DNA of 64,000 nucleotides from an uncultured Actinomycetes bacterium (lineage in GTDB: Bacteria > Actinomycetota > Thermoleophilia > Solirubrobacterales > 70-9). The position numbers and the translations under genes are program-made. Shown in pieces: positions 2,022 to 58,080 of this stretch. The stretch is from the NCBI GenBank assembly GCA_963773445.1, contig CAVZAU010000005.1, forward strand, positions 280,944 through 344,943, given 5' to 3'. Under the pieces are notes generated by a model, which did not search any database, was not told the DNA's origin, and saw only the letters and a program-made list of their open reading frames with translations. The number at the start of each line of letters is the position of its first letter. Within the stretch, counting starts at the first letter, position 1.

Positions 2022-2100
2022 GGTCTCTCCTCCATCCCCGCACCCCTTCCCAGGGGTGCATTGATGAAGCTGCCCGCGAGGGCCTTTGTCTAAACGCCGC

Positions 2101-2147
2101 TTCGTCTGTTCCTTTTCGTTGCTAGAGACCGAAAAGGAACAGACGAA
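2101..2147. terminator. Perfect 18-bp stem hairpin 3 nt downstream of the TetR stop
   Basis: TTCGTCTGTTCCTTTTCG (2101-2118) pairs with CGAAAAGGAACAGACGAA (2130-2147) across an 11-nt loop. Its terminator role is inferred from position only. Confidence 0.5.
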
Positions 2148-2150
2148 CTG

Positions 2151-2771
2151 CTAACCGTTGGCGAGCAGCGCGGTCAGGGCCCGATGCAGGCCGGCGACGG
2201 CCGAGTCGAGCGGTGCCTGGTCGCCGGCGGCGCGGGCGCGGATCAGGGCGCCCTCGATCGTCGTGACCACGAGCCCGGCGAAATCGTCCGCGTCCTTCTT
2301 CGTCACGCCTTCGCTGCGCAGGGCGGCGGCGATCGGGGCTTCCCAGCTTCCAAAGGCTGCGGTCGCCGCGGCGGCGAGCGCCGGGTCCTCGGGTCGGGCG
2401 AGCGCCGCGGCGGCGACGGGGCAGCCGAGCCGCTCCGGCTTGTCCTTGACGCGGCGGCGGAACATCTCGCCGAAGGTGCTCAGCGTCTCGGCGAGGCCGA
2501 GCTCGGCCAGCGAGCTTTCGATCGCGGCGCGGATCTCCCGCCCCTCGAGTTCCGCCGCCTCGACGGCGAGCTGCTTCTTGCCGCCGGGGAAGTGGTGGTA
2601 GATCGAGCCACGCGGGGCCTTGCCGCGGTCGGCGACGTCGCGCAGCTCCATCCCGGCGTACCCCTTCTCGGCCAGCAGCTTGCGGGCGCCGTTCAGCAGC
2701 CGTTCGCGGCCGTCGCGGCGCGTCGGCTCGGCCGCTCTCGCATCGGCGATTCGCGTTATGCCCATGGTCAT
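2151..2771 (-). CDS. TetR family transcriptional regulator
   Basis: N-terminal HTH RERLLNGARKLLAEKGYAGMELRDVADRGKAPRGSIYHHFPGGKKQL. The 538-aa track ORF was trimmed to the in-frame ATG at 2771. Divergent from the MFS gene. Confidence 0.9.
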   Translation of the reverse strand: MTMGITRIADARAAEPTRRDGRERLLNGARKLLAEKGYAGMELRDVADRGKAPRGSIYHHFPGGKKQLAVEAAELEGREIRAAIESSLAELGLAETLSTFGEMFRRRVKDKPERLGCPVAAAALARPEDPALAAAATAAFGSWEAPIAAALRSEGVTKKDADDFAGLVVTTIEGALIRARAAGDQAPLDSAVAGLHRALTALLANG

Positions 2772-2789
2772 AGTATAGTCGCGGCCACA

Positions 2790-4199
2790 ATGTATGACCG
2801 TGGTCATAAAGTTGGCGTGCTGATCGCCTGCACCGGCGCCTTTCTCGCCTTCCTCGACACGACGATCGTCAACATCGCCTTCCCGGACATCGCATCCTCG
2901 TTCCCGGAGGCAAGCCGGGGATTGCTCTCCTGGGTGCTTGACGGCTACTTCGTCGTCATCGCCGCGCTGCTTGTCCCGGCCGGCGGCCTGGCCGACCGCT
3001 TCGGCCACAAGCGCGTCTTCCTCTGGAGCCTCGGCGGGTTCACCGCCGCCAGCCTGCTCTGCGCCCTCGCGCCCTCGCTGGAGATGCTGATCGCCTTCCG
3101 AATCATCCAGGGGATCGGCGCGGCGGCGATCGCCCCGACCTCGTTGGCGATCGTCCTCGACAGCTTCCCGCCCGAGAAGCGCGCCACCGGCGTCGGCATC
3201 TGGGGTGCCGGTGCGGCGGCGGCGGCCGCGGTCGGCCCGACCCTCGGCGGGGCGCTGGTCGAGCTCTCCGACTGGCGTCTCGTCTTCCTCGTCAACCTGC
3301 CGCTCGGCGCCGCCGCCCTGCTCGCCGGCAGGCGCCTGTTGCCGGAGCGGCCCGTCTCCGACAGCCGCCTGCCCGATCTTCCCGGGGCGCTGGCGCTGGC
3401 CCTCGGCCTGGCCGCAATCACCCTCGGGATCGTCGAGGGCAACGACTGGGGCTGGGCCTCGGCCGGCGTGCTCGGCTGCTTCGCTGCCGGCACCTTCCTG
3501 CTGGCTGCCGTCGTCATCCGCAGCCTGCGCCACCCGCGCCCGATCGTCGAACCGGACCTCTTCGCCCACCGTTCCTTCGCGATCGGCAACCTCGGCACCC
3601 TGCTCTTCGCCACCGCCTTCTTCTCGCTGATCCTCGGCAACGTCCTCTTCCTCACCTCGATCTGGGGCTACACGGTGCTGCAGGCTGGGGCGGCGACCCT
3701 CCCCGGGCCGGCGCTGACGACCGTCGTCTCCGGCCCCGCCGGCCGCCTCGCCGACCGCTTCGGCCACCGCGCCGTGGTCGTTCCCGGCGCCCTCGTCTTC
3801 GCCGCTGGGGTGATGGTCCTGCGCTCGGCCGGGTCGGAGCCCGACTGGCTCGGACTCTGGCTTCCCGGGGCGGTGCTGACCGGCATCGGCATCGGTCTCG
3901 CTTTCCCGACCCTCAGCTCCGCTGCCGTCCGCGATGTCGCCGACGACCGCTTCGCCACCGCCAGCGCCGTCAATGCCGCCTTCCGCCAGGTCGGCGCCGT
4001 CCTCGGCACCGCGATCCTCGTCGCCATCGTCGGCGAACCGGCCAACCTCGCGGAGGCCCTGCGGGTAAGCGACGCCGCCTACCTCTTCGCGGTGATCGCC
4101 GCGATCGCCTCAGGCGCGGTCGCCTTCGGCCTCCGCGGACGGCCGGCGCGAGCCCCACTCGAGATCGGTGAGGCCGTGCCCGCCGGCTACGGCGAATAG
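2790..4199 (+). CDS. MFS transporter, DHA2 (EmrB/QacA-like, 14 TMS) drug efflux type
   Basis: LDTTIVNIAFPDI and GGLADRFGHKRVF motifs with many TM segments. ATG 2790 is in frame within track ORF 2184..4199; the start is uncertain by a few codons. Confidence 0.9.
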   Translation: MYDRGHKVGVLIACTGAFLAFLDTTIVNIAFPDIASSFPEASRGLLSWVLDGYFVVIAALLVPAGGLADRFGHKRVFLWSLGGFTAASLLCALAPSLEMLIAFRIIQGIGAAAIAPTSLAIVLDSFPPEKRATGVGIWGAGAAAAAAVGPTLGGALVELSDWRLVFLVNLPLGAAALLAGRRLLPERPVSDSRLPDLPGALALALGLAAITLGIVEGNDWGWASAGVLGCFAAGTFLLAAVVIRSLRHPRPIVEPDLFAHRSFAIGNLGTLLFATAFFSLILGNVLFLTSIWGYTVLQAGAATLPGPALTTVVSGPAGRLADRFGHRAVVVPGALVFAAGVMVLRSAGSEPDWLGLWLPGAVLTGIGIGLAFPTLSSAAVRDVADDRFATASAVNAAFRQVGAVLGTAILVAIVGEPANLAEALRVSDAAYLFAVIAAIASGAVAFGLRGRPARAPLEIGEAVPAGYGE

Positions 4200-4200
4200 G

Positions 4201-5199
4201 TCAGCGTTTCGCCTGACCCTTCAGCTTCACTTTCAGCGTCTTCTCGGTCACCGCACCGGCGACGCTGGTGCCGGTGACCGTGGCCTTCAGCGTCAACCTT
4301 TGTTTCGGGCTGAGCCGCGCCAGCTTCGCCTTTACCCTTTTGCTGAATTTGAGCGTGAACTTGCCGAGGGTTCCGGCGGTGAGGTTCTTGGTCCCGCCGC
4401 TGAGTTTCGCTTTCTTGCCTTTGCCGAGCTTGACGACGCCGCTTACCGTGACCGGTGCCGCCGTGTCGGTGGCGACGACGATCAGGACCGACCCTTTCCT
4501 CACCTGCTTGCTGGTCGAGAGCGTGACCGGCGGGCAAGCGCTTTGGAGAGCCGCGCTCTGCGGGCAGGCGTCCTGGGTCTCGTCGCCGAAACCGTCGTTA
4601 TCGACATCGGGCTCGAGGACGGCTACGGCGGGGACGCGCGCCCCGGCGCCTTCTTCATAGGCCGCCGTGCCACCGACCGCAACGCTCCCGGGGAAGCCGC
4701 CGTACAGGTCGCTCGGTCCCGCGATCCCTTCCCCGCAGAAGAGGGTGCCGATTTCGCTTTCGCTCCCTTCGAAGGTGATGGTCCCGCTGCCGAACAGAGC
4801 CAGCCGGTCGCCGGCCTGGACCGGGATCCGGGTTGCCACGGTGTTGAGGCCCGAGCCGACGATGCCGCTCGATTCGCCGATCGCCCGTGCGGTTTTGGCC
4901 GCGGTGTCCAGGCGCATCACCTTCAGGGTCTGCGGGATGATCGTGGGGATCGGTTTGGAAGGCGGAGGCGGAGTGACCAGGCTGAGCTTCCAGGCGGTGA
5001 TCACGCCTGCCGATGGGGCTGCCAGGGGCATAGCCGAGGACGGGGAGTTGAGGCCGAAGAGCGTTATCTGCGTTTTGCCCGTCGTGTTGTTCGCAGTGCA
5101 TGAGTCGCCGAATTCAGAAGCGGCCATGGCACCAGCGGGGGCAAGCATCGCGACAGCCAAGCAAGCGCCGAGGGCGCTGGAAATCAACCTGCACTTCAT
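4201..5199 (-). CDS. Secreted hypothetical protein with Asp-rich Ca-binding-like motif
   Basis: Signal peptide MKCRLISSALGACLAVAMLAPAGAMA, a DVDNDGFGDETQDACP segment (thrombospondin-type-3-like) and a Lys-rich C-terminal domain. No function assignable. Confidence 0.7.
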   Translation of the reverse strand: MKCRLISSALGACLAVAMLAPAGAMAASEFGDSCTANNTTGKTQITLFGLNSPSSAMPLAAPSAGVITAWKLSLVTPPPPSKPIPTIIPQTLKVMRLDTAAKTARAIGESSGIVGSGLNTVATRIPVQAGDRLALFGSGTITFEGSESEIGTLFCGEGIAGPSDLYGGFPGSVAVGGTAAYEEGAGARVPAVAVLEPDVDNDGFGDETQDACPQSAALQSACPPVTLSTSKQVRKGSVLIVVATDTAAPVTVSGVVKLGKGKKAKLSGGTKNLTAGTLGKFTLKFSKRVKAKLARLSPKQRLTLKATVTGTSVAGAVTEKTLKVKLKGQAKR

Positions 5200-5278
5200 C
5201 TGTGTCCCTTTCGATCGAGCGGTTCAGCCAGCATAGCCGTGATCGACCTATTTGGTTCGGAAAACCTACCTTTGTGGC

Positions 5279-7450
5279 TCAGGCTGGATCGAGAGAGCGC
5301 CAGGCGCTCTTCGCCTCGGTCAAGCTGACCGAGAGGCTGCGGTCGCCGGCTCCGATCGCGATCTCCTCGCCGCCGACCGTGCCGATCAGGACGGCGCCCA
5401 GCTCTTCGAGATCCGGTCGGTCGCCGCTGACGAGGAAGCCGCCTGGACCCTCGCCGAAGAGGGCTTCCTCGGGTTGGGCGCCGCGCTCGCGCAGGTGTTC
5501 GACGTTGGCGTCGCACCCGATGCCGCCGGCGATCGCGGACTCGGCGAGGGCGCAGGCGAGGCCGCCGTCGGAGACGTCGTGGACGGAGGAGAGCCTGCCG
5601 GCGCGGACCGCGTCCCGGACGACGTCGCAGGCGGCGGCGACGGCGGCGACGTTGGGGCGGGGGAGGCCCATCTTCAGCTCGCCCCGCTGCTTGGCCAGCT
5701 CCGAGCCGGCGAGGCTCGGTTCGAAGGGGCCGACGAGGCCGATCGCGTCGCCTTCCTTGACGAAGGCGCTGCCGGCGACCTGGGCGGCGTCGGGCAGCTC
5801 GCCGACCATCGCCACGACCGGGGTCGGGTAGATCGGGCCGTCGGGCCCCTCGTTGTAGAGGGAGACGTTGCCGCCGACGACGGGGACGCCGAGGGCGTTG
5901 CAGGCGTCGGCGAGGCCGCTGACGGCGTGGTCGAGCTGCCAGGCGCCGGCCGGCTTCTCGGGGTTGCCGAAGTTGAGGCAGTTGGTGAGGCCGAGCGGCT
6001 CGGCGCCGACGCAGGCGAGGTTCTGCGCGCACTCGAGGACCGCCTCGATCGTCCCCTCGTAGGGGTCGCAGGCGACGCGGCGGCCGTTGCCGTCGATCGA
6101 GACGGCGATCGCGTTGCCGGCCTCGGGCAGCTGCAGGACGGCGGCGTCGGCCTGCTCGGGCCGGCGCACCGTGCGCGAGCCGACGATCGAGTCGTACTGC
6201 TCGAAGGCCCACCGCTTGGAGGCGATGTTGGGGGAGGAGAGCAGGGACAGCAGCTCCTGCTCGGGCGCGGCGCCCGGCGCCAGCGTCTCGCGGTTGCCGT
6301 AGATCCAGCCGTCCGGCTCGGCCGGATCGAGGTCGTAGAGGGGGCAGCCGTCGACCAGCGCCTCGACCGGCATCTCGCCGACGACGTCGCGCTCGCGGAG
6401 GATCCGGATCTGGCCACCCTCGGTGACGGTGCCGATCTCAGCCGAGCCGGTCTGCCATTTCTCGCAGATCGCCCGCACCTCCTCGACCCGGCTCGGCTCG
6501 ACCACCGCCAGCATCCGCTCCTGGCTCTCGGAGACCATGATCTCGAAGGGCTCCATGTCGGACTCCCGCAGCGGCACCCGGGCGACGTCGATGTCGATCC
6601 CGACCCCGCCGGCGCTCGCCATCTCCCCGGCCGAGGAGGTCAAGCCCGCGGCGCCGAGATCCTGCAGCGAGACGAGCAGCCCCTTCGCCAGCAGCTCCAG
6701 GCAGCACTCCAGCAGCTTCGACTCCTCGAAAGGGTCGCCGATCTGCACCGTCGGTCGCTTCGCCTCGTCGCCCTCGCCGAGCTCGGCCGAGGCGAGGACC
6801 GAGGCGCCGCCTATCCCGTCGCGCCCGGTCGAGGCGCCCATCAGGACGATCGAGTTGCCGACGCCGGCCGCCGCCGCCCGCACCATGTCCGCGGTCTTGG
6901 CGAAGCCGATGCACATCGCGTTGACCAGGCAGTTGTGCTCGTAGGGCTCCTCGAAGTAGATCTCGCCGCCGACCGTCGCCACCCCGATCGAGTTGCCATA
7001 GTGGCCGATGCCCCGCACAGCGCCGTCGAGCAGGTGGCGCGAGCGGACCGAGTCGAGCTCGCCGAAGCGGAGGCTGTCGAGGAGCGCGATCGGCCGCGCC
7101 CCGATCGCGAAGACGTCGCGCATGATGCCGCCGACTCCCGTCGCCGCGCCCTGGAACGGTTCCACCGCGCTGGGGTGGTTGTGGCTCTCGACCTTGAAGG
7201 CGACCGCGTACCCCTTGCCGACGTCGACGGCGCCGGCGTTCTCGCCGGGCCCCATCACCACCCGCTCGCCCTCGGTCGGCAGCCGCCGCAAGAGCTTGCG
7301 CGAGTGCTTGTAGGCGCAGTGCTCGGACCAGAGCAGGCTGAACATCGCCAGCTCGACGTCGTTCGGCTCCCGCCCCAGCTTCTCGACGATCAGCTCGTAC
7401 TCGGAGTCGGTGAGCCCGAGCTCGCGGTATTTCGGCGTCTCAACCGTCAT
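5279..7450 (-). CDS. purL: Phosphoribosylformylglycinamidine synthase subunit PurL (FGAM synthase II)
   Basis: 723 aa with two AIR-synthase-like halves (GVGGIMRDV, DVSDGGL). Sits in purS-purQ-purL order with 4-nt overlaps. Confidence 0.97.
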   Translation of the reverse strand: MTVETPKYRELGLTDSEYELIVEKLGREPNDVELAMFSLLWSEHCAYKHSRKLLRRLPTEGERVVMGPGENAGAVDVGKGYAVAFKVESHNHPSAVEPFQGAATGVGGIMRDVFAIGARPIALLDSLRFGELDSVRSRHLLDGAVRGIGHYGNSIGVATVGGEIYFEEPYEHNCLVNAMCIGFAKTADMVRAAAAGVGNSIVLMGASTGRDGIGGASVLASAELGEGDEAKRPTVQIGDPFEESKLLECCLELLAKGLLVSLQDLGAAGLTSSAGEMASAGGVGIDIDVARVPLRESDMEPFEIMVSESQERMLAVVEPSRVEEVRAICEKWQTGSAEIGTVTEGGQIRILRERDVVGEMPVEALVDGCPLYDLDPAEPDGWIYGNRETLAPGAAPEQELLSLLSSPNIASKRWAFEQYDSIVGSRTVRRPEQADAAVLQLPEAGNAIAVSIDGNGRRVACDPYEGTIEAVLECAQNLACVGAEPLGLTNCLNFGNPEKPAGAWQLDHAVSGLADACNALGVPVVGGNVSLYNEGPDGPIYPTPVVAMVGELPDAAQVAGSAFVKEGDAIGLVGPFEPSLAGSELAKQRGELKMGLPRPNVAAVAAACDVVRDAVRAGRLSSVHDVSDGGLACALAESAIAGGIGCDANVEHLRERGAQPEEALFGEGPGGFLVSGDRPDLEELGAVLIGTVGGEEIAIGAGDRSLSVSLTEAKSAWRSLDPA

Positions 7451-8112
7451 CGAGGCGGGTTTCCGTCCCCCTGGGACGCAAAAACGCCCCGGCTCAGCCG
7501 ATCGAAGACGCGCAGCCCGTCCGTGCTTCCCGTCAGCGGATCCACCGCGTGCTCGGGATGCGGCATCAGGCCGAGGACGTTCCCCCGCTCGTTGCTGACG
7601 CCGGCGATGTCGCGGGCGGAGCCGTTGGAGTTGTGGCCGTCGGCGTAGCGGTAGGCGACCTGGCCGTTCGCCTCGAGCCGGTCGAGCATCTCCTCCGGCG
7701 CGTAGTAGCGGCCTTCGCCGTGCTTGGCCGGGATCGAGAGCCTGGAATCGCCCCCCTCTTCGATCAGCTCGACCTGGTGGCAGCGGAAGCGCAGCTCGAC
7801 GTTGCGCAGCAGCGCCCCCGGCAGCAGCCCCGCCTCGCAGAGGACCTGGAAGCCGTTGCAGATGCCCAGCACCGCCATCCCGCCCGTGGCGGCCTCGGCC
7901 ACCGCCTCCATCGCCGGGCTGAAGCGGGCGATCGCCCCGGCCCGCAGGTAGTCGCCATAGGAGAAGCCGCCGGGGACGACGACGCCGTCGACGCCGTCGA
8001 GGTCGCGGCTCTCGTGCCAGATCAGCCGGGCGCCGTCGCCGTGCACCTCGCAGGCGTGCAGCGCGTCCCGCTCGTCACACGAACCAGGGAACTGGAGGAC
8101 CCCCCAGATCAC
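7447..8112 (-). CDS. purQ: Phosphoribosylformylglycinamidine synthase glutaminase subunit PurQ
   Basis: 221-aa class I amidotransferase with GICNGFQ nucleophile elbow and MPHPE. Confidence 0.97.
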   Translation of the reverse strand: MIWGVLQFPGSCDERDALHACEVHGDGARLIWHESRDLDGVDGVVVPGGFSYGDYLRAGAIARFSPAMEAVAEAATGGMAVLGICNGFQVLCEAGLLPGALLRNVELRFRCHQVELIEEGGDSRLSIPAKHGEGRYYAPEEMLDRLEANGQVAYRYADGHNSNGSARDIAGVSNERGNVLGLMPHPEHAVDPLTGSTDGLRVFDRLSRGVFASQGDGNPPR

Positions 8113-9182: not shown

Positions 9183-10601
9183 ATGCTAACCATCCGCGGC
9201 GGCGGACCGATCTGCGGCCTGTCTGCGACTTCGCTCACAGCGGAGAAGAACCTCCTCTGCGATGCTCTTCCCGTGGCCCTTCCGCCCGAGCCGAGCAGTT
9301 CCCCGCTGGTGCAGACCCTGCGCTGGGCCTTCCGGCCGATCCCCTTCATGGAGGACTGCCGGCGCCAGTTCGGCGATTCTTTCGGCGTTCGCTTCCTCGG
9401 CTTCGAGCGGCCGATGGTGCTGATCTCCGACCCCGAGGCGATCAAGGCGCTCTACCGCGAGCGTGAGCACGGGTTGCCGCCGGGGCGCAACGCCGTCCTC
9501 AAGCCGATCGTCGGCTCGAAATCGCTGCTGATCCAGCAGGGGGCAGAGCACCTGAGCCGGCGCCGGTTGATGCTGCCGCCCTTCCACGGCGAGCGGATGC
9601 GCTCCTACGAGGCGACGATGAACGAGATCGTCGGCGCCGAGATCGACTCCTGGCCGCTGAACAGAGAGTTCCCGATCCACGCGCGGATGCAGGCGGTGAC
9701 GCTGGAGATCATCCTCCGCGTCGTCTTCGGCGTCTCCAGCGGGCCGCGGCTGGACCGGCTGCGGGAGATGCTCGCCACCGTCCTCACCGAAACCGCAACG
9801 CCGGGGCGGCAGGTGCTGGGGCTGGCGCTGCAGCGCTTCGGCATCGGCGGCGGCATGTTCGCCCGCTTCGAGGGGCAGCTGCGCGAAGTCGACGAGCTGC
9901 TGCTGGCGGAGATCGCCGAGCACCGGGAACGGCCGGACCTCGAGCAGCGGGAGGACATCCTCTCGATGCTGATGGGGGCCGAGTTCGAGGACGGGACGCG
10001 GATGGAGGACCGGGAGCTGCGCGACCAGCTGATGACGCTGCTGCTGGCCGGCCACGAGACGACCGCGACCGCGCTGGCCTGGACCTTCGACCTGCTGCTG
10101 CGTCACCCGGCGGTGCTGGGGCGCCTGCGCGAGAGCCTGCTGGCCGATGAGGAGGAGTACCTGCGGGCGACGATCTCGGAGTCGCTGCGCCTGCGGCCGG
10201 TGATCCCGCTGGCGGGGCGGCGCCTCGCCAAGCCGCTCGTCGCCGACGGCCTTACCCTGCCCGAGGGGACCGACGTCACTCCGGCGATTTGGCTCACCCA
10301 CACCAGGGCCGACGTCTATCCCGAGCCATTCGCCTTCAAGCCCGAGCGGTTCCTCGAGGATGGCCCCGACACCTACGCCTGGATCCCCTTCGGCGGCGGC
10401 GTCCGCCGCTGCATCGGCGCCACCTTCGCCGAGTTCGAGATGCGCGTCGTCCTCCGCGAGGTCCTCACCCGCTGCGAGCTGCGCAAGGCGAGCCCGATGC
10501 CCGAGCGCACCGGCCGCCGCAACATCACCCTCTCCCCGAAGGACGGCACCCCGGTCCTCGTCACCTCACGCGAGCCGGCCCGCGAGCCGGTTGCGGTCTG
10601 A
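9183..10601 (+). CDS. Cytochrome P450
   Basis: FGGGVRRCIGATFAEFEM Cys-heme loop, AGHETTA I-helix and ESLRLRP (ExxR). An alternative GTG start at 9273 would leave a more plausible divergent promoter gap. Confidence 0.9.
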   Translation: MLTIRGGGPICGLSATSLTAEKNLLCDALPVALPPEPSSSPLVQTLRWAFRPIPFMEDCRRQFGDSFGVRFLGFERPMVLISDPEAIKALYREREHGLPPGRNAVLKPIVGSKSLLIQQGAEHLSRRRLMLPPFHGERMRSYEATMNEIVGAEIDSWPLNREFPIHARMQAVTLEIILRVVFGVSSGPRLDRLREMLATVLTETATPGRQVLGLALQRFGIGGGMFARFEGQLREVDELLLAEIAEHRERPDLEQREDILSMLMGAEFEDGTRMEDRELRDQLMTLLLAGHETTATALAWTFDLLLRHPAVLGRLRESLLADEEEYLRATISESLRLRPVIPLAGRRLAKPLVADGLTLPEGTDVTPAIWLTHTRADVYPEPFAFKPERFLEDGPDTYAWIPFGGGVRRCIGATFAEFEMRVVLREVLTRCELRKASPMPERTGRRNITLSPKDGTPVLVTSREPAREPVAV

Positions 10602-10637
10602 CAACACGTTACGAACGTTTTTGTCTACACTTCTCCC

Positions 10638-43890: not shown

Positions 43891-43986
43891 GCGCCCGTAG
43901 CTCAGTGGTCAACGGGTCCCTTCGGGGGCCCAAAGAGCGTCGGTCTTTCAAGCCGAAGGTCGCCGGTTCGAATCCGGTCGGGCGCA
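43891..43986 (+). tRNA. Atypical tRNA, anticodon UUC (Glu) by position, with an 18-nt hairpin inserted in the D-loop
   Basis: Hand-folded arms: acceptor GCGCCCG/CGGGCGC (7/7), D-stem GCTC/GAGC, anticodon arm TCGGT-CTTTCAA-GCCGA, T-arm GCCGG-TTCGAAT-CCGGT, discriminator A. The D-loop carries GGGTCCC-TTCG-GGGGCCC (43914-43931). 96 nt instead of ~76. Confidence 0.7.
43945..43962 (+). repeat. Direct repeat copy 1 (candidate attL core) inside the tRNA
   Basis: CTTTCAAGCCGAAGGTCG spans the anticodon loop to the variable loop. Identical to 49473-49490. Confidence 0.6.
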
Positions 43987-44150
43987 TTCTTTGGTGTTCC
44001 GCTTTGCACCGCGCGTTGCCAGGTGCAGAGCCAAGTCTTCGGTCTATCGTCGGATCGGCGTTCCGGTGGCGTCCTGGCGATTCCCCCGGGTTCCGGGGCG
44101 TCATGGTCTCATCTCGGTCTCATTTGTCCGCGCCGATTAGGGTCTCAGCG

Positions 44151-44348
44151 GTGCCGCCAGAGAAGGCCAAATCCCTCAAAGCTGTCCGCGCTGCGCAAAA
44201 GCAGTTCGAGCGCGACTCCTCTGCGGCTCAACGGGCACGCCGCAAAGCCTTCACCCAGGCTCAGAAAGAAGGGCTCTCTCTTCGCGAGATCGGCGAGGTG
44301 GTCGGCCTGCACCACACGCGCATCAGCCAAATCATCCGGGGAGAGTAG
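44151..44348 (+). CDS. Small HTH DNA-binding protein (sigma-70 region-4-like)
   Basis: C-terminal LSLREIGEVVGLHHTRISQIIRGE. Start is GTG 44151 or ATG 44103, both in frame in track ORF 43905..44348. Confidence 0.6.
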   Translation: MPPEKAKSLKAVRAAQKQFERDSSAAQRARRKAFTQAQKEGLSLREIGEVVGLHHTRISQIIRGE

Positions 44349-44437
44349 GGCGAGTTTGGAGAGTTTGACTCTCCAAAACTGCTAGCCTGCTGACATAAAA
44401 CAAAAAGCGCCCCCGCGCTGGTGGAACAGCCGGGGGC

Positions 44438-44755
44438 ATGGCACAGGAGGGGTTAGCTCCCATGCACGACAAGCCTAGAGGCGGCGGCGATGACGGCGCC
44501 GCGACCACCGCCGAATTGGACGCTCGCGACCAAGCGGCAGTTCTGAGACACGTCCTCTCGCTCCACCCGCAGACGCTTACGGAGCTTGAGTTGCTGAAGG
44601 AAATGACCGGGGGAGGGGAGGCGACCTTCGCCGACCGCGACCGGTACCGGCGAGCGGTCCGCGATCTCGCCGCAGGCGGCCTGCTCAGGCCGGAGGGAAG
44701 CCTGGTCGTCCCGACGAGAGCCGCCGTCCTCTTCCACGAGCTGGCCGAACTCTGA
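44438..44755 (+). CDS. Hypothetical small protein (possible winged-helix)
   Basis: 105-aa ORF, first gene of an overlapping three-gene set (TGATG junction with the next gene). No family recognised. Confidence 0.55.
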   Translation: MAQEGLAPMHDKPRGGGDDGAATTAELDARDQAAVLRHVLSLHPQTLTELELLKEMTGGGEATFADRDRYRRAVRDLAAGGLLRPEGSLVVPTRAAVLFHELAEL

Positions 44756-45042
44756 TGGACGGCAGAAGCGTGGACCGCGAGGTCGCCGGGCAGCTCGGAA
44801 GGAACGTGTGGCTGGCGCGTCGCCGCGCCGGCTTCTCCCAGGAAGCGCTCGGCGCCATCGCCTCGCTCCACCGCACCGAGATCGGGCTGATCGAGCATGG
44901 CCAACGACTGCCGCGCGTGGACACGCTGATGAGGCTCGCTGGAGCCCTCGACGTGCGCGTGGAAAGCCTGCTGGAGGGCATCGCCTGGATTGCGCCGGGT
45001 CCGAGCGCACGAGGCAGCTTCGTCGTCAGGAGGTTCGGATGA
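44755..45042 (+). CDS. XRE-family HTH transcriptional regulator
   Basis: GRNVWLARRRAGFSQEALGAIASLHRTEIGLIEHGQRLPRVDTLMRLAGAL is a classic Cro/C1-type HTH. Confidence 0.85.
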   Translation: MDGRSVDREVAGQLGRNVWLARRRAGFSQEALGAIASLHRTEIGLIEHGQRLPRVDTLMRLAGALDVRVESLLEGIAWIAPGPSARGSFVVRRFG

Positions 45043-45269
45043 ACCCCAAGAACCAGATGAACACCAAGCTCACGAGCGTCCGGCTTCCGAAGGACCTGGC
45101 CGACGAACTCGATGCCGTCGCCAGGGCGGACCACCTCCCGGTCTCAGAACTGGTCCGCGCGGCGCTCTACCGCTTCATCGCGGAACGACGCACCGAGCCC
45201 GACTTCAAGGAGCGACTGAAAGAGGTGCTTGAAGAAGACCGCAAGACCCTAGAGCGGCTGGCGACGTAA
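45039..45269 (+). CDS. Ribbon-helix-helix (CopG-like) protein
   Basis: TKLTSVRLPKDLADELDAVARADHLPVSELVRAALYRFI. ATG 45039 overlaps the upstream stop (ATGA). Confidence 0.85.
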   Translation: MNPKNQMNTKLTSVRLPKDLADELDAVARADHLPVSELVRAALYRFIAERRTEPDFKERLKEVLEEDRKTLERLAT

Positions 45270-45696
45270 GAGCGATCACTTCATGGATCGCGTCGCGCGG
45301 GGGGGAAGGAGGACCGCCCCCAGTCCCCGCCGACTTTCAAAGAACCCCGAGACCCGAATCAAAGACCCCGATCCAGCTCTGAGGATGCAACCACCGAGCC
45401 CGAACCTGATGCACGAAGCACAGACTCCCCACGAAGCTTCGCTACGGGCCTATGGCCCTACTCGAAGCCCCGACACACTACGAACCCTCCGGATTCGGCT
45501 ATTTCAAGCTGCCCTTCCCGCCCCTCCGGGCGGCCGATTTTGGCACGGCTTCGCCGTGCGGAGGCCGCCTTTAAGGAGGGCCGGGAGGGGTCTGACCTTC
45601 GGTCGGATTTCGATGCACACGCCGGTCTTGCCGGACAGAAGGGGCATGGCGGCAACTCACCCCGTGCAGATCGTCTTCTCCGGTGGCAAGGAGGGC

Positions 45697-45891
45697 ATGC
45701 AGACCAAAGCCAGCGACCCGACCTTCTTCACCGAGCGGACGCTTGCCGACTACCTGGCGGTCTCGGATCGGACCGTCCGCAACTGGATCAGACGCGGCGA
45801 GCTGCCCAGCTACAAGCTCGGCGCATCCAGACGGATTGACCCTGCCGACGTCGAGGACTTCCTCTTGCGCCACAGGGACGAGGCATCGTGA
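45697..45891 (+). CDS. xis: Excisionase-family (MerR-like HTH) DNA-binding protein
   Basis: TLADYLAVSDRTVRNWIRRGELPSYKLGASRRIDPADVEDFL. 4-nt overlap with the integrase start. Confidence 0.85.
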   Translation: MQTKASDPTFFTERTLADYLAVSDRTVRNWIRRGELPSYKLGASRRIDPADVEDFLLRHRDEAS

Positions 45892-46991
45892 GGCGCGACT
45901 CTCCCGTCAAGCGCCAAAACCCGTCCGGCCAGGTCGTGTGGGTCGCCAGGTACACCGGCCGCGACGGCAAACGCCATATCGCCAAGCCGACCTGGAACCG
46001 AGGCAAAGGAACCTTCGCCAGGAAAGGCGATGCGCAGAAAGCCATCGACGAGGCATACGGGCTCTCGGATCGTCCCGACACCCTCGGCGACTATGGCGCC
46101 ACCTGGACCGAGCGGCATCCGCGATCCGAGCGCACCAACGCGACGAACGACCACCGCATCAGCCGGGTTGCCGACGTCGAGATTGAGGGCATCCCGTTGA
46201 AGGACTGGTCGCTCCGCGAGCTGCGCCGTCGTCACACGCTCGCCCTGGTGGACCACATGTTGAGGACCGAAGGTCGAGCAACCACCGGAGCCGTGGGCAT
46301 CCTCCGCGCCCTCTCGGCGATGGCCGAGGACGCGATCACCGACGAAGTCTGCGACCTCAACCCGTTCAAGGGCGTCCGCATCCGAGCCAATGATCCGAGA
46401 GCGCAGAAGAAGCCAAGGCCGATCCGCGTCTTCAACTTCGAGGAGATGCACCGCTTCGGAAAAGCCGCCGGTCGCTACGAGGCGATGGTCCGCGTCTTCA
46501 CCGACTGCGGCCTCAGGCTGGGGGAGGTGCTGCCGCTGCGCCGAGAAGACTTCGACGGCGAGACCCTCCAAGTCCGCCGCACCGCCCACGAGGGTCAGAT
46601 TCTCGAAGGCACCAAGACCGACCACGGCGAGCCCGACGCGGGACGCATCGTCCCCGTGCCGGCGACCCTTGCCTGGATGCTCGAAGCTCAGATCAACCTC
46701 AACGGCGAGGGCTGCGAACTGCTCTTCACGACCCCGAGAGGCCGCCTCTGGCGTGAGCGCACCTTCTACCGCGACCTCTGGAAACCGACCCAGGAATCCT
46801 CCGGACTAGACATCCGCCCCCACGAGTGTCGCCACAGCTACATCACGCATCTACGGGCAGCTGGCGTTAACGACGCCGATTTGGCCGAGATTGCAGGGCA
46901 CCGGGTTGAGACGATGTTGGCCCGCTACACGCATGCGATGCATATGAGCCATCCGAGAATTCGGGAAGCAATCGAGCAAATCGACCCCTGA
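45888..46991 (+). CDS. int: Tyrosine-type site-specific integrase
   Basis: 367 aa. The C-terminal catalytic region has HECRHSYITHL (HxxR) and AGHRVETMLARYTH (His...Tyr). Confidence 0.95.
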   Translation: MRRDSPVKRQNPSGQVVWVARYTGRDGKRHIAKPTWNRGKGTFARKGDAQKAIDEAYGLSDRPDTLGDYGATWTERHPRSERTNATNDHRISRVADVEIEGIPLKDWSLRELRRRHTLALVDHMLRTEGRATTGAVGILRALSAMAEDAITDEVCDLNPFKGVRIRANDPRAQKKPRPIRVFNFEEMHRFGKAAGRYEAMVRVFTDCGLRLGEVLPLRREDFDGETLQVRRTAHEGQILEGTKTDHGEPDAGRIVPVPATLAWMLEAQINLNGEGCELLFTTPRGRLWRERTFYRDLWKPTQESSGLDIRPHECRHSYITHLRAAGVNDADLAEIAGHRVETMLARYTHAMHMSHPRIREAIEQIDP

Positions 46992-47010
46992 GCCGGCGAA
47001 CTTTCATGAG

Positions 47011-48471
47011 CTAAATGATTTCGGAAAATCGATCAGCCATATAGTCGAAGACGGCACTGGCTCCGTGCTCGTCATCTTCTTTTCGAGCTTCGACTAGATC
47101 CTGCAAATCATTGTCGTCTAGGACGATGACAAAGCCTCGATCATCGCTTGCCGTGTCGCGGCATTTCTGAATGAAACGCGGCTTGTCTTTGAAGCTCCGA
47201 CAGACCAAGAGACCGAAAGTGCCCCTCGCCTTGCTGAAGCGACCGGAAATCTGGTCAAGCGCGTCGTTTTTCAGATCACCTTTGTAGTTCTTGCACTCTA
47301 CGAAGCAGTAGGGCTGGGGCTTGTAGTTGGATTGTGCCCAGCCGAAGAAGCCGCCGATCCCGTTATTGGTGTATCGGATATCAACCCTCTTTCGACCCTG
47401 GTGCAGCTCCGACTCAATTCTGGGGGCCGAAAGCGATGGATAGAACATCGCCGTCAGAAATTTCTCTACCGCTCGATGGTAGTCGGACGCAGCGGCGCTT
47501 CCAGTTGGAACTTGAACCACCCTGGCGAGAAGCGAATCCCAATCCGGCGCAGGGGCCCCCGTTAGATTCTCAAGGTCGTCGTAGGAGAGCGGGGGGTCGC
47601 GAAATGCCTGTTTCGACTTGTCTTTCCTGTATTGCTCAAGAAGGCCAGGTTCTTCCAGCGTGGTTTCTTCGTTGGCGGGCTTGATAGCAGGGTTGACCCC
47701 AAAGTATTTCTTTTGCACGTCCTTCTTGTAGACGCGCTTTTCCCCGCTTTTAAGCGTATGGACGAGGTTAGTTCCCGCCGAAAGCTCGCGGTTCTGAAGC
47801 GCCTCCAGAATGTATCCACGGAAGTACTCGCCAGGGTTGAAATCCAGGCGCGTCCGCACGATCACTTTGGGGACGAGGATTAAAGGACCAACCGGCGTCA
47901 TCGGTAAGTGCCCATATTCTTCGGAGCTCCAAGCACCGGTGGCCGTGTCCCAAATATGCCCAGTGCCCACCTGCTCAATTGGAATGCCGTAATGCTCGGC
48001 CATCTCTTGCGTATAGTCGATGAGAGGTTGACGAATAATGTTGGTCGTAATGTCTGAGATGCGGTCTACATCGATCCCGTAGATCACCAGAGCAGTGTCC
48101 TCAAGATCCTTCAGTAGGCCAGTTTTGGCCGCCTCGCTCTTTCTCATTCGCTCCCAAACACGATCCACTAAGCCCGGCCCTAGACCGCTTCCCCGGGGGC
48201 GATCTGCCGAAAGGCCAAGGTGCGTCTCGTTCGGCTCTCGCAACCCTTCAAGGAGGTCAAGGCCCCGATCGCGGTCGTCGTTGCGAACTGCTTTCAGGAC
48301 CTGCTTGAAAAAATCCTGAAGCAGTCCTACGCAGCCTTCCGCCCACTCGCTTTCTATCCGGCGAATTGCACGCGGCTCTACAAATGCCCGGGTATCTCCT
48401 TCCAACTCAACATCGATGAAGTCGAGTGCCCCTTGGGACTGGTCGAGACCGAAATGCTCTGAGATTCGCAT
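47011..48471 (-). CDS. Hypothetical 486-aa protein: unrecognised N-terminal ~340 aa plus PD-(D/E)xK (Mrr/restriction-endonuclease-like) C-terminal domain
   Basis: The C-terminus has ...GRKRVDIRYTNNG... followed ~27 residues later by CFVECKNYKG (a D...ExK pattern). The gene sits in the lowest-G+C stretch of the window. Confidence 0.85.
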   Translation of the reverse strand: MRISEHFGLDQSQGALDFIDVELEGDTRAFVEPRAIRRIESEWAEGCVGLLQDFFKQVLKAVRNDDRDRGLDLLEGLREPNETHLGLSADRPRGSGLGPGLVDRVWERMRKSEAAKTGLLKDLEDTALVIYGIDVDRISDITTNIIRQPLIDYTQEMAEHYGIPIEQVGTGHIWDTATGAWSSEEYGHLPMTPVGPLILVPKVIVRTRLDFNPGEYFRGYILEALQNRELSAGTNLVHTLKSGEKRVYKKDVQKKYFGVNPAIKPANEETTLEEPGLLEQYRKDKSKQAFRDPPLSYDDLENLTGAPAPDWDSLLARVVQVPTGSAAASDYHRAVEKFLTAMFYPSLSAPRIESELHQGRKRVDIRYTNNGIGGFFGWAQSNYKPQPYCFVECKNYKGDLKNDALDQISGRFSKARGTFGLLVCRSFKDKPRFIQKCRDTASDDRGFVIVLDDNDLQDLVEARKEDDEHGASAVFDYMADRFSEII

Positions 48472-48708
48472 TCAAGCATCTTACTGTGCTGTGAATTATC
48501 TAGAATACTGCAAGTAATTTTACACGCGAGTTCTTCTTCCTAACACCATGTTGGTCATGGTCGCGCGCCTGAGAGTGGCGGGGCAAGGTCTAGCGAGTCG
48601 AGAATGGTGCGAATCGGCGAAAGTCGCGGCAGATTGGGGTCGCATGGTGTGAGTCTTTGGCGCGCGCCATTACCCGATTCGTTCAGTGGCCATTACGATT
48701 TCGGGGGC

Positions 48709-49026
48709 ATGCAGCTAGTTGATGAGACTTTGATCGCTGAGGCCGGGCGTCGCCTGGCAGCGGCTGCTCCTGACTCCCAGGTCATTTTGTTCGGCTCCCA
48801 CGCTCGTGGAGATGCGACTCCGCACAGCGATGTCGACTTCTTGGTCGTGGAGCCGGAGGTCGCTAACGAGGCTGAGGAGTCGGTTCGCCTTCATCGCACC
48901 CTGCGCGATCTGCGCCTGCCGGCCGATGTCATTGTCGTCAGCCGCGAGTACGCCGACCGGTGGCGAGAGGTGCGCGGCGGCGTTGTCCACGCTGCTCTTT
49001 CGCAGGGGCGGGTGCTGGCCGGATGA
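48709..49026 (+). CDS. MNT-type nucleotidyltransferase (antitoxin of HEPN/MNT module)
   Basis: LFGSHARGDATPHSDVDFLVV (GSx10-ish DxD). ATG 48709 is in frame in track ORF 48604..49026. Confidence 0.88.
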   Translation: MQLVDETLIAEAGRRLAAAAPDSQVILFGSHARGDATPHSDVDFLVVEPEVANEAEESVRLHRTLRDLRLPADVIVVSREYADRWREVRGGVVHAALSQGRVLAG

Positions 49027-49415
49027 GTGCCACGCCGGACCTGCCCGCTGATCTTCTCGCTCTTGCCCGTGAGGATCTTGCATCTGCCGAAGCGCTTGAC
49101 CGGGCGGAGCAAGTGTCGGATGCGCCGGTCGGGTTCCATGCCCAGCAGGCCGTCGAGAAGGCGCTGAAGGCGGCCATCGCGAGGGGCGACCAAGATTTCC
49201 CCTTCACCCACGATCTCGGCCTTCTCATGCAGCTCTGCCAAGACGCGGGGCTTGAGCTGCCCGCTGATCTCACCGACGCTGATCGCCTCACCCCTTACGC
49301 GGCGGCTGTTCGATACGGCCTCGGCGACCCGGGTGCTGTCGCTACCGCTGATGCTCTGCGATGGGCTGGGCTCGCCGTCGAGTGGGCTGACACTCAGCTT
49401 CGCTCGGATTCCTAG
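49023..49415 (+). CDS. HEPN-domain protein (toxin of HEPN/MNT module)
   Basis: FHAQQAVEKALKAAI HEPN helix. The ATG overlaps the MNT stop (ATGA). Confidence 0.85.
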   Translation: MSATPDLPADLLALAREDLASAEALDRAEQVSDAPVGFHAQQAVEKALKAAIARGDQDFPFTHDLGLLMQLCQDAGLELPADLTDADRLTPYAAAVRYGLGDPGAVATADALRWAGLAVEWADTQLRSDS

Positions 49416-49472
49416 TCTCATCCCGGTCGCATCGCCGCCGCAATTCCGCTGCCCGCGCGGAGGACCTTTCTC

Positions 49473-49490
49473 CTTTCAAGCCGAAGGTCG
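49473..49490 (+). repeat. Direct repeat copy 2 (candidate attR core)
   Basis: CTTTCAAGCCGAAGGTCG, identical to 43945-43962, starting 58 nt after the HEPN stop. No recognisable tRNA 3' half follows it. Confidence 0.6.
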
Positions 49491-49511
49491 ATCCCGCACA
49501 TCCCTTGTGTA

Positions 49512-50921
49512 ATGAGGGAGAATGCAGGTATGCGGGCCGGCGGCGGTGAGGCGAGATGGGGAGGTCGGGAGCTGCGTCGGGCCGTGGGGCTCGGGGCGGT
49601 GGTTGTTTTGATGCTTTGGGTCTGGGCTGGATCGGCGTCGGCTACTGAGCCGGGGACGAATGGGCCGATCGTGTTTTCGTCCGGTGGGAAGATCTACACG
49701 ATCCAACCTGATGGGTCCGGGTTGACGCCGGTCGTTCGTGAGGAAGAGGAGTACAAGTACGACTTCTATCCGAGCTGGGCGCCTGATGGCCTGCGGATCG
49801 CGACGAGTGGGCAGAAGCGGGAATCGAATGGCTACTGGACCGTCTCGGGGCTGCACGTGTTCGCGCCGGACGGGTCGGGTTTCGAGCGGCTACCGATCGG
49901 GGGGTACATCGAATCCCCGGCCTGGTCGCCCGACGGCGCCCACATCGCCTTCATCAGGGACCGTGAACTCCTTAGCACGACCCCCGAGGGTGCTCCGCCA
50001 ACGCTGATCATGAGCAACGCTTGGTCTCCGGCCTGGTCGCCGGACGGGCAGCGGATCGCGTTCATCCGTCCCATCGAGTCAGACGAGGAAACCAACCTCT
50101 ATGTGATGGCCGCCAAGGGTGGCCCTGCCCAGAAAATCCTCGATCCTCCCGGGCGGGTATCGTCCCCCTCGTGGTCCCCCGACGGCTCCACGATTATCTT
50201 CGACTTCAGGGAACTGGTTCCCCGCGAGGACCCGGGTCCCGGTGAGCCCCCGTACACCTACTCAGGGCCCAACGTGTACGCGATCTCGGCGACTGGCGGA
50301 GAGCCGGTCCAGCTGACCGAGTCGGGCGTCGACCAGGATCCCGTCTGGTCGCCCGACGGCTCGACGATCGTCTTTCAGAGCGACCGTCCCTCTGTGTCCC
50401 CGACCGCAGGGCCGCATCTGTACCTGATGGACGCGGACGGAAGCAACGAGCGCCAGCTGACCACTACCATCAACTGCTCGCAATGTGGTCCGGACTGGGC
50501 CTCGCTCCCGCCGCATTCCCAACCGTCTCCTGCCCCGCCGGCGGCAGCCGACGCCGCGCCGCGCCGCAGGCAGAAGTTCTCCCACCTGTCGCTGACGCGC
50601 TCGCGGTTCGCCCGGCCCGCGGGGGTTTGGCTCCGTTTCCGGGCAGCGGTCGCCGAGAAAGTCAGCCTCACGATTCGCCGCGCCGTTCCGCCGGCTCGCG
50701 CCTCCCGCTGCAGCAGGAGACCCGGCACCTGCCTGTGGGTGGGGCAAAGGAAGCGCCAGGCGCATAAGGGGTTCAACCGGATCTCGCTGGGCGCGCTGCT
50801 GAGCGACGCACCGACTCCCGGCTGCTACTGGCTGCAGCTTGGATCCTCGAGCGACGGCGCCCGTGCTGGCATCGCCTTTCGGGTGATGCCGCCGCACGGG
50901 GCGCAGCGGCGCGGTCACTAG
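49512..50921 (+). CDS. Secreted TolB-like beta-propeller (PD40 repeat) protein
   Basis: Signal peptide, then at least five WSPDG/WAPDG-containing repeats and a basic C-terminal domain. Confidence 0.85.
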   Translation: MRENAGMRAGGGEARWGGRELRRAVGLGAVVVLMLWVWAGSASATEPGTNGPIVFSSGGKIYTIQPDGSGLTPVVREEEEYKYDFYPSWAPDGLRIATSGQKRESNGYWTVSGLHVFAPDGSGFERLPIGGYIESPAWSPDGAHIAFIRDRELLSTTPEGAPPTLIMSNAWSPAWSPDGQRIAFIRPIESDEETNLYVMAAKGGPAQKILDPPGRVSSPSWSPDGSTIIFDFRELVPREDPGPGEPPYTYSGPNVYAISATGGEPVQLTESGVDQDPVWSPDGSTIVFQSDRPSVSPTAGPHLYLMDADGSNERQLTTTINCSQCGPDWASLPPHSQPSPAPPAAADAAPRRRQKFSHLSLTRSRFARPAGVWLRFRAAVAEKVSLTIRRAVPPARASRCSRRPGTCLWVGQRKRQAHKGFNRISLGALLSDAPTPGCYWLQLGSSSDGARAGIAFRVMPPHGAQRRGH

Positions 50922-57615: not shown

Positions 57616-58080
57616 ATCGGCGGCTTCCTCGACATCGGCGACCTCGTCTTCACCACCCAGGCCGGCGCGCTCTTCCGCTACGACCTGCTCTGGGCCGTCG
57701 TCCTCGGCGTCCTCGGCATCGCCGTCTACGCGGAGATGTCGGGACGGGTCGCCGCGGTCAGCGGCCGCCCCGTCTTCGACGTGATCCGGATGCGGATGGG
57801 TTTCGGCCTCGGGCTCCTCGCCCTCCTCGCCAGCACCGCGGTCAACCTGCTCACGCTCGCCGCCGAGCTGGGCGGGATCGCGATCGTCCTCGAGCTCCTC
57901 CTCGACGCCCCCTACAGCATGTTCGTCGTCACCGCGGCCGCCGCCCTCGTCCTCATCGTCGCCCTGCTCCCCTTCGGTCGCCCTGCTCCCCTTCGGCGGC
58001 ATCGAGCGCGTCTTCGCCAGGCGTTTCCCTGGGAGGCGGTGGTCGAGCTGACCGGCGATGCCGTCGTGGTGCGGACCTAG
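57616..58080 (+). pseudogene. Nramp/MntH-family transporter remnant (N- and C-terminally truncated, frameshifted)
   Basis: The frame opens at the NMO stop and reads IGGFLDIGDLVFTTQAGALFRYDLLWAVVLGVLGIAVYAEMSGRVAAVSGRPVFDVIR... It has no start codon, and a 19-bp duplication shifts the frame after ...LLPFG. Confidence 0.75.
57958..57995 (+). repeat. Perfect 19-bp tandem duplication
   Basis: GTCGCCCTGCTCCCCTTCG occurs at 57958-57976 and again at 57977-57995. Confidence 0.95.

Follow-up and report, generated by a model that had tools for sequence, protein, structure and literature searches.

An island-borne DUF8370 protein that joins a conserved N-terminal module to a predicted PD-(D/E)xK nuclease domain, a candidate single-gene defence system

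Results

The DUF8370 gene of the window

Analysis of a 64,000-nt stretch of DNA from an uncultured Actinomycetes bacterium (Thermoleophilia; Solirubrobacterales; 70-9), taken from positions 280,944 to 344,943 of contig CAVZAU010000005.1 (assembly GCA_963773445.1) and called the window here, identified a candidate defence nuclease of the DUF8370 family. Its gene, the target gene, lies at 47011-48471 on the minus strand, starts with ATG and encodes 486 aa plus the stop codon. The target gene is cargo of a 5.5-kb island (~43945-49490) that sits beside a tRNA gene and carries its own integrase and an excisionase-like gene. The protein has two parts, an N-terminal module (residues 1-305) and a C-terminal domain (residues 311-486) with the features of a restriction-endonuclease-like nuclease.

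A preliminary description of this DNA, made from its letters and open reading frames (ORFs), had proposed that a 486-aa ORF at 47011-48471 occupies a patch of low G+C content. The ORF is real, the peptides quoted from it (MRISEHFGLDQSQGALDFIDVELEGDTRAFVEP; GRKRVDIRYTNNG...CFVECKNYKGDLKNDALDQISGRF) being found in the minus-strand translation from the ATG, and its G+C content is indeed low, 0.52-0.56 per 500-nt interval compared to 0.65-0.76 in the flanks. The gene is the lowest-G+C stretch of the profiled 38-58 kb region, with 0.546 over its length, 0.618 over the island and 0.693 over the remaining window. Comparison with the orthologue on a related metagenomic contig (L001) showed 88% amino acid and 78% nucleotide identity and a ratio of nonsynonymous to synonymous substitution rates (dN/dS) of 0.033, indicating that the target gene is real, beyond what chance would yield.

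The public databases (NCBI/ENA) hold a shorter version of the product, P0007, whose 378 aa are 100% identical to target residues 109-486. Its start corresponds to M109, and it thus omits codons 1-108 (48148-48471), including the conserved D20, D26 and E79-P-N81. Because homologues align from residue 1, we conclude that the start annotated for P0007 is 108 codons too late.

A predicted nuclease domain at the C-terminus

The C-terminal ~170 residues are predicted to adopt the restriction-endonuclease (PD-(D/E)xK) fold with the predicted catalytic residues D364, E392 and K394 intact. This domain, assigned from AlphaFold and Foldseek as Mrr or restriction-endonuclease-like, is encoded at 47014-47541 on the minus strand. 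A PD-(D/E)xK-like C-terminus with a D...ExK arrangement had also been read from the sequence beforehand, and that reading was borne out by the conservation of the three residues, by the fold prediction and by Foldseek, which all agree. The predicted catalytic aspartate D364 (codon 47380-47382, minus strand), recognised from translation and conservation, lies in strand 361-369 and is separated by 27 residues from the (D/E)xK motif E392-C393-K394 (codons 47290-47298, minus strand), identified in the same way in strand 388-398. All three residues are invariant in 73 homologues; among 78 distant representatives D364 was conserved in 92%, E392 in 94% and K394 in 92%, with Q407 also within 92-94%.

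A full-length AlphaFold (AF2) model built from the 73 homologues had a mean predicted local distance difference test score (pLDDT) of 91.1 and a predicted template modelling score (pTM) of 0.89. In this model, residues 311-486 follow the core order alpha-beta-beta-beta-alpha-beta, placing D364 on the second strand and E392 and K394 on the third, and the core strands are flanked by predicted helices 325-343 and 402-409. The Foldseek matches retained were all domains of restriction-endonuclease type: in the PDB they were VC1899 (1xmx, E 0.018, the lowest value, probability 0.96), FokI, Nt.BspD6I, Can2, Can1 and Cap4, and those in BFVD were phage 'restriction endonuclease' models with E-values of 1.5e-3 to 5e-2 and probabilities of 0.99-1.0. 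Foldseek matches to APOBEC and RPB5, which may stem from a common alpha/beta core, were set aside for their low probability.

An autonomous N-terminal module

Residues 1-305 (47557-48471, minus strand) form a mostly helical module with a small sheet. Modelled alone, the N-module retained a pLDDT of 90.5, and a Foldseek search of it against the PDB returned no match (best E 1.8, probability 0.11); its predicted fold is without a solved relative. Assignment of the N-module as a FokI-like recognition domain or as SAVED or CARF was unsupported, since Foldseek against the PDB gave only noise. Toprim, HD and MazG-like assignments, ideas that came from inspection of motifs and secondary structure alone, were likewise dropped as unsupported.

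When 1.84 billion representative proteins were scanned with the N-module, 1,328 of them matched at E<=1e-3, and 246 still did so at the stricter limit of E<=1e-30. Architectures were counted in the 148 listed of these 1,328 representatives, each range giving the results of two classifications. The commonest architecture, found in 78-90 of the 148, joins the N-module to the DUF8370 nuclease domain; 28-43 proteins stop after the N-module, and 15-20 continue into other sequence. These continuations, effector domains of kinds known from abortive-infection systems, include a CHAT protease fused to the N-module (P0258), glycine-rich helical tails and, placed after the nuclease, a PNP_UDP_1 nucleosidase (P0143 and P0173) that matches the CBASS 'PN-superfamily' effector model.

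The proteins that stop after the N-module include genuine stand-alone copies, annotated as genes of 288-318 aa on complete plasmids (L113 2500-3456; L114 3980-4924; L115 5031-5897). The loci are a Bacillus cereus plasmid of 4.56 kb with few other ORFs, an Acinetobacter baumannii plasmid of 9.47 kb, where the gene stands beside a RelE/helix-turn-helix (HTH) pair, and a 111-kb plasmid of Rhodococcus ruber. Shorter stretches of the N-module were also detected by tblastn on other Rhodococcus and on Prescottella plasmids.

Nine positions (D26, E79, G94, D136, S139, D140, T154, W181 and P201) were 95-100% conserved in all three architecture classes, indicating that the N-module has a mostly acidic site of its own, for binding or catalysis, regardless of what is fused behind it. 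The N-module is thus autonomous and strongly conserved, with an invariant, mostly acidic or polar site (D26, E79, D136, S139, D140 and T154). The existence of stand-alone proteins further indicates that sensing need not be the sole role of the N-terminal region.

A large, already catalogued family

The preliminary description had taken the protein to be an orphan, and this did not survive comparison with family catalogues: the target is a standard member of Pfam DUF8370 (PF28123) and of PHROG 27295, and a remote full-length homologue of the PADLOC model PDC-M36A. The phrog_27295 profile, which has no function assigned, matched target residues 1-485 over profile positions 1-468 of 469 (E 3.7e-119). 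A protein search returned more than 1,326 homologue clusters, and all 120 of the 120 that were listed, P0007 among them, carry PF28123.1 (DUF8370); this membership was read from the precomputed annotation of the homologues, the profile itself being missing from the Pfam copy that was scanned. The listed homologues are 47-88% identical to the target and mostly 470-490 aa long. Neither family record shows a feature by which the target differs from a typical member, and neither carries an assigned function.

Other catalogues gave no match: an NCBIfam scan of the target protein found nothing, PDB sequence searches with the protein, the full-length profile and the C-domain profile gave nothing usable, and tblastn of the target against 50,697 deposited phage genomes found no match. 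Relatives were present in 21 IMG/VR viral contigs and 44 plasmids. A pattern-based scan, run on a single genome for each species and giving a lower bound, placed relatives in at least 380 of 185,579 species, sporadically across many phyla, including Thermoleophilia, Streptomyces, Chloroflexota, Planctomycetota, Alpha-, Beta- and Gammaproteobacteria, Chlorobium, Spirochaetes, Deinococcales and bacteria of the candidate phyla radiation (CPR). The literature that we searched held no paper on DUF8370, on PDC-M36 or on three RefSeq accessions of relatives, and a validation study of other PDC candidates left out DUF8370 and PDC-M36 (PMC12881386). What is already known, then, is a catalogued, uncharacterised family, of which the target is a routine member; the PADLOC candidate to which it is related, as a protein without a partner, is unvalidated.

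Relationship to PDC-M36 and other systems

The PADLOC model PDC-M36A matched the target with an E-value of 3.5e-38 in two stretches, the best aligning residues 2-228 to profile positions 7-233 of 457, a much weaker match than that of a true member. A bona fide PDC-M36A, a 456-aa protein encoded on a Methylobacterium plasmid (E 5.6e-241 to the model), aligned by BLASTP with target residues 2-461 at 24% identity (E 1e-32), with the D and the ExK (E-M-K in that protein) in register. This end-to-end alignment with matching D and ExK indicates that DUF8370 and PDC-M36A are sister families sharing one two-domain plan, the N-module followed by the C-terminal domain. PDC-M36 is itself a predicted, unvalidated system, and the target differs from it in its low identity (24%), in belonging to a separate Pfam and PHROG family and in lacking the ~120-aa PDC-M36B partner. 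The Methylobacterium plasmid (L116 7371-8116) has, after its PDC-M36A gene, a pair of PDC-M36B paralogues of 127 and 120 aa. No PDC-M36B was found among the island proteins, and no PDC-M36B-like ORF was found at E<=1 in six-frame translations of the window at 36-58 kb and of ~110 DUF8370 loci. Because the partner is absent, the PADLOC rules would not call PDC-M36 here.

Several other systems share part of this plan. With Mrr and Type IV enzymes (Mrr_cat, PF04471) the target shares the D...ExK on the expected strands and a solitary gene without a methyltransferase; unlike Mrr proper, it has no match to the Mrr_N winged helix, its Mrr_cat match is below the gathering threshold and its N-terminal 300 aa are unrelated to solved DNA-recognition domains. 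Cap4 (SAVED) and Can1, Can2, Card1 and VC1899 (CARF) likewise place a regulatory domain before a restriction-endonuclease-like domain. CBASS and type III CRISPR effectors were among the best Foldseek PDB matches (1xmx, 8bao, 6sce and 6vm5/6vm6), matches driven by the nuclease domain alone, and the effectors swapped on the N-module (nuclease, CHAT and PNP-type nucleosidase) mirror the effector set of CBASS and type III CRISPR systems. The N-module of the target, in contrast, matched neither SAVED nor CARF by sequence (PADLOC, Pfam) or by fold (Foldseek), and no cyclase was a conserved neighbour, a single CBASS cyclase being present among 150 neighbours. Finally, Shedu (SduA, DUF4263) and other single-gene PD-(D/E)xK defence proteins share the plan of a variable or unknown N-terminal part with a C-terminal nuclease, as well as the defence-island context; no sequence relationship to Shedu was detected, and PDC-M36A was the sole PADLOC model that matched the target.

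Neighbourhoods of homologues in other genomes

The initial picture of a single large protein that joins an unrecognised module to a nuclease in a defence or mobile context recurs in other genomes. All-against-all clustering of 1,423 ORFs from 80 loci revealed no conserved partner gene, the top cluster, a GntR/UTRA regulator, being present in 12 of the 80. Mobile-element genes were frequent: a tyrosine recombinase or integrase lay within 10 kb in 16 of the 80 genome loci, and a tyrosine integrase was present in 8 of the 21 viral-contig loci, in five of these eight within 1.5 kb of the gene. Serine recombinases and TraG/TrwB were among the recurrent neighbours, and in Streptomyces the elements that house homologues are of the pSAM2 type and carry RepSA, FtsK/SpoIIIE and a GntR regulator. 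Of 60 loci, 18 had a tRNA gene within ~10 kb and four had one directly adjacent, a modest signal. The G+C content of DUF8370 genes was on average 11 points below that of the distal flanks (71 loci) and lower in 92% of cases.

Defence genes were found among the immediate neighbours as well. The Type I restriction-modification genes HsdM and HsdS adjoin some homologues, and others stand next to MADS genes, AbiEi, AbiL/GajA/AriA-like ATPases, a CBASS cyclase or a dCTPase. AbiJ/Abi_C neighbours were present in three loci (L009-L011), and on plasmid p419 of Bacillus mycoides the order is a Gabija-like TOPRIM gene and UvrD, DUF8370, an integrase and McrBC.

Structure of the island

That the target gene lies in an int/xis element had been proposed at the outset, and profile searches agree. 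The integrase, a tyrosine integrase (45888-46991, plus strand; Pfam Phage_integrase, E 1.8e-15), is convergent with the target gene and ends 19 bp from its stop codon. Upstream of it are an excisionase-like ORF with a C-terminal HTH_17 domain (45283-45891, plus strand; Pfam HTH_17, E 6.6e-13) and an Xre-type regulator (44755-45042, plus strand; Pfam HTH_3, E 1.9e-8).

On the other side of the target gene, the proposed divergent MNT/HEPN pair was also found, both genes being on the plus strand. The longest HEPN ORF (48960-49415; Pfam HEPN, E 1.2e-14) is paired with a minimal nucleotidyltransferase (MNT) gene (48709-49026; Pfam NTP_transf_2, E 1.4e-11). The 237-bp spacer that had been noted between the target and MNT genes presupposes that translation of MNT begins with the ATG at 48709; this codon has GGGGG upstream and yields a typical 105-aa MNT with GSxxRG...DVD. 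The longest MNT ORF starts at 48604. The divergent spacer (48472-48708) has a G+C content of 0.53 and presumably houses both promoters; a scan of it for the sigma-70 promoter consensus and for a terminator found neither.

The MNT/HEPN pair (48709-49415) resembles a type VII toxin-antitoxin module. Among PADLOC models, MNT was matched by PDC-S09, a single-gene candidate (E 7.5e-13), and more weakly by PDC-M05A; a 2026 paper (PMC12881386) reports that in E. coli PDC-M05 was protective and PDC-S09 non-protective. A role of MNT/HEPN as partner of the target was rejected because the pair does not recur beside homologues and other genes stand in its place in L001; it appears to be a separate cargo module of the island.

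The left edge of the island is the tRNA gene (43891-43986, plus strand), predicted by ARAGORN and matched by the Rfam tRNA model with 66.2 bits (E 3.8e-13). Its length of 96 nt is explained by a 25-nt hairpin (GGGTCCC-TTCG-GGGGCCC) inserted in the D loop. Rfam aligned the remainder as a normal tRNA with UUC at the anticodon position, and ARAGORN gave it no name. The same D-loop insertion is present in the L001 tRNA (10521-10616, minus strand), and there both the inserted hairpin and the T stem have undergone compensatory changes, suggesting that the tRNA with the insertion is functional.

The anticodon loop and stem of this tRNA contain the left copy of an 18-nt direct repeat, CTTTCAAGCCGAAGGTCG (43945-43962, plus strand), a candidate attL core. 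A repeat search (family D7) located the right copy, a candidate attR core and 100% identical, at the right island edge (49473-49490, plus strand), directly before the next chromosomal gene. By our own estimate, the chance of such a repeat match between a 96-nt tRNA and 15 kb is ~1e-5 to 1e-4. A displaced 3' half of the tRNA, expected at the distal junction if crossover occurred inside the tRNA, was absent after the attR core both in the window (49473-49540) and in L001 (150-221).

Comparison with L001 nevertheless supports the island limits: the left flank, including an SDR gene and the tRNA, is syntenic, and homology on the right side stops at the end of the 18-nt repeat. Within the island, the two contigs have in common the target gene and the 3' part of the integrase (46557-46991), and the excisionase-like and HTH genes do not align. 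In place of MNT/HEPN, L001 carries four different cargo genes (381-7856), and the alignment with the HEPN gene is reduced to its final ~40 nt. These genes encode a 957-aa defence-associated reverse transcriptase (DRT; RT_UG5-nitrilase, E 1.7e-63), a protein of 917 aa that matches AAA_16 weakly and the products of two small ORFs. The different cargo of L001 suggests that the island is an old tRNA-linked hotspot with cargo turnover, the target being its conserved cargo.

Two repeat features lie beyond the island. The first gene past it (49512-50921, plus strand) encodes a PD40/WD40-like beta-propeller whose internal repeats appear as direct DNA repeats (families D1, D3, D6 and D11). Further along, a 19-nt unit, GTCGCCCTGCTCCCCTTCG, is exactly duplicated in tandem (two copies, 57958-57995; family D4) within a predicted coding region.

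Discussion

We assign a probability of roughly 0.55 to the proposal that the target is a horizontally mobile DUF8370 nuclease of defence type, complete in one polypeptide, and we read it best as a variant of the candidate kind PDC-M36 that lacks the B component and is gated by a new N-terminal module. In the mechanism that we envisage, the N-module would control the effector, either by binding a cue that arises on phage or plasmid entry or by performing a first catalytic step. This event would license the C-terminal nuclease to cut DNA, and cutting would stop the invader or kill the infected cell, by direct destruction or abortive infection, respectively. Gating is the least secure part of this proposal, because stand-alone N-modules act by themselves.

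Several points weigh against the proposal. The searched literature contains no experiment in which DUF8370 or PDC-M36 gave protection, and the 'PDC' label in PADLOC denotes no more than a guilt-by-association candidate. For the nuclease domain, Foldseek gave modest E-values (1.5e-3 to 1.8e-2), and the Pfam Mrr_cat match is sub-threshold (E 0.061, 13.9 bits compared to a cut-off of 21). The association with defence genes is descriptive, a tally of the neighbours of DUF8370 genes, and some copies are single-gene insertions among housekeeping genes, for example L007 between pheS/pheT and aroE. In addition, the stand-alone N-modules on tiny plasmids indicate that the module works without a fused effector, so that a role as 'core enzyme' fits at least as well as one as 'sensor'.

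A broader and more tentative idea concerns the N-module itself, which may be an unrecognised sensing or catalytic domain of a large modular immune family (~1,300 clusters at 50% identity). Such a domain could drive interchangeable effectors, among them the PD-(D/E)xK nuclease, CHAT protease, PNP nucleosidase and helical tails, or could act with effectors in trans, as with PDC-M36B and the stand-alone plasmid copies. One possibility, suggested by SAVED and CARF, is that it is a receptor for a small-molecule or nucleotide signal made elsewhere in the cell or by the invader, which would make DUF8370 a new system of abortive infection encoded by a single gene.

A different arrangement of the same two domains would be a solitary Type IV (modification-dependent) or Type IIS-like restriction enzyme, in which the N-module recognises DNA and the Mrr-like domain cleaves it, giving direct immunity without a methyltransferase or suicide. 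Mrr_cat is the best Pfam match, one source names the homologue P0091 'Restriction endonuclease', Foldseek aligned FokI and Nt.BspD6I over long stretches and returned phage 'restriction endonuclease' models, and a solitary gene without a cognate methylase is what a Type IV enzyme would lead one to expect. A weak SRA-like neighbour in five Streptomyces loci (SAD_SRA, E 2.7e-4, below the Pfam cut-off) and adjacency to McrBC elsewhere point the same way. Nevertheless, we consider a restriction enzyme unlikely: the N-module alone had no Foldseek match to DNA-recognition domains, that of FokI included, and the FokI alignments had TM-scores of 0.2-0.25, which are globally not meaningful. The presence of the N-module on CHAT, on PNP nucleosidase or without any effector is also unexpected for a dedicated recognition domain, and its invariant residues are mostly acidic (D26, E79, D136 and D140), which would be unusual for a DNA-binding surface.

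The target could instead serve the mobile element, as an addiction or toxin module or as an exclusion factor attacking competing plasmids or integrative and conjugative elements (ICEs), a role that would account for its occurrence next to integrases and on small plasmids. This idea draws on the frequent integrase adjacency, on the presence of homologues inside pSAM2-type actinomycete ICEs (AICEs) and in the 21 IMG/VR viral contigs, and on the N-module proteins of 4.5-15 kb plasmids, one of them beside the RelE/HTH toxin-antitoxin pair. We nevertheless regard it as improbable, given that no antitoxin-like neighbour is conserved, that many copies lie outside recognisable elements and that the L001 orthologue is under strong purifying selection (dN/dS 0.033) though only the 3' part of the integrase aligns there. 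It also overlaps with defence, anti-plasmid activity being itself a defence function. A housekeeping nuclease of DNA repair or recombination that came to lie near an integrase by accident is very hard to reconcile with the distribution of the family. PD-(D/E)xK domains are common in repair enzymes, and one homologue does stand between pheST and aro genes; however, relatives occur sporadically (at least 380 of 185,579 species) and on plasmids and prophage-like contigs, their genes average 11 G+C points below their hosts, their neighbourhood is variable with no repair operon, and the target had no NCBIfam match.

Whatever its function, the locus has consequences for annotation: a 'hypothetical protein' becomes a testable candidate whose public gene call is 108 codons short, and the PADLOC two-gene candidate PDC-M36 is seen to have a far commoner, partner-less sister family. 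Should the target not act in defence, it would be an ordinary island cargo gene of unassigned function. Another nuclease-bearing candidate in a defence island would not surprise specialists, and the part worth experiment is the N-module, with no matching fold and with swapped effectors. If the proposed defence role is true, DUF8370 would add a widespread single-gene defence system, found in Actinomycetota (including Streptomyces and Thermoleophilia), Pseudomonadota, Chloroflexota, Planctomycetota and CPR bacteria, with copies also carried by plasmids and prophage-like contigs, and its control module, which has no structural precedent and is coupled in nature to at least three kinds of effector, would offer a clean case for studying how a new domain senses infection.

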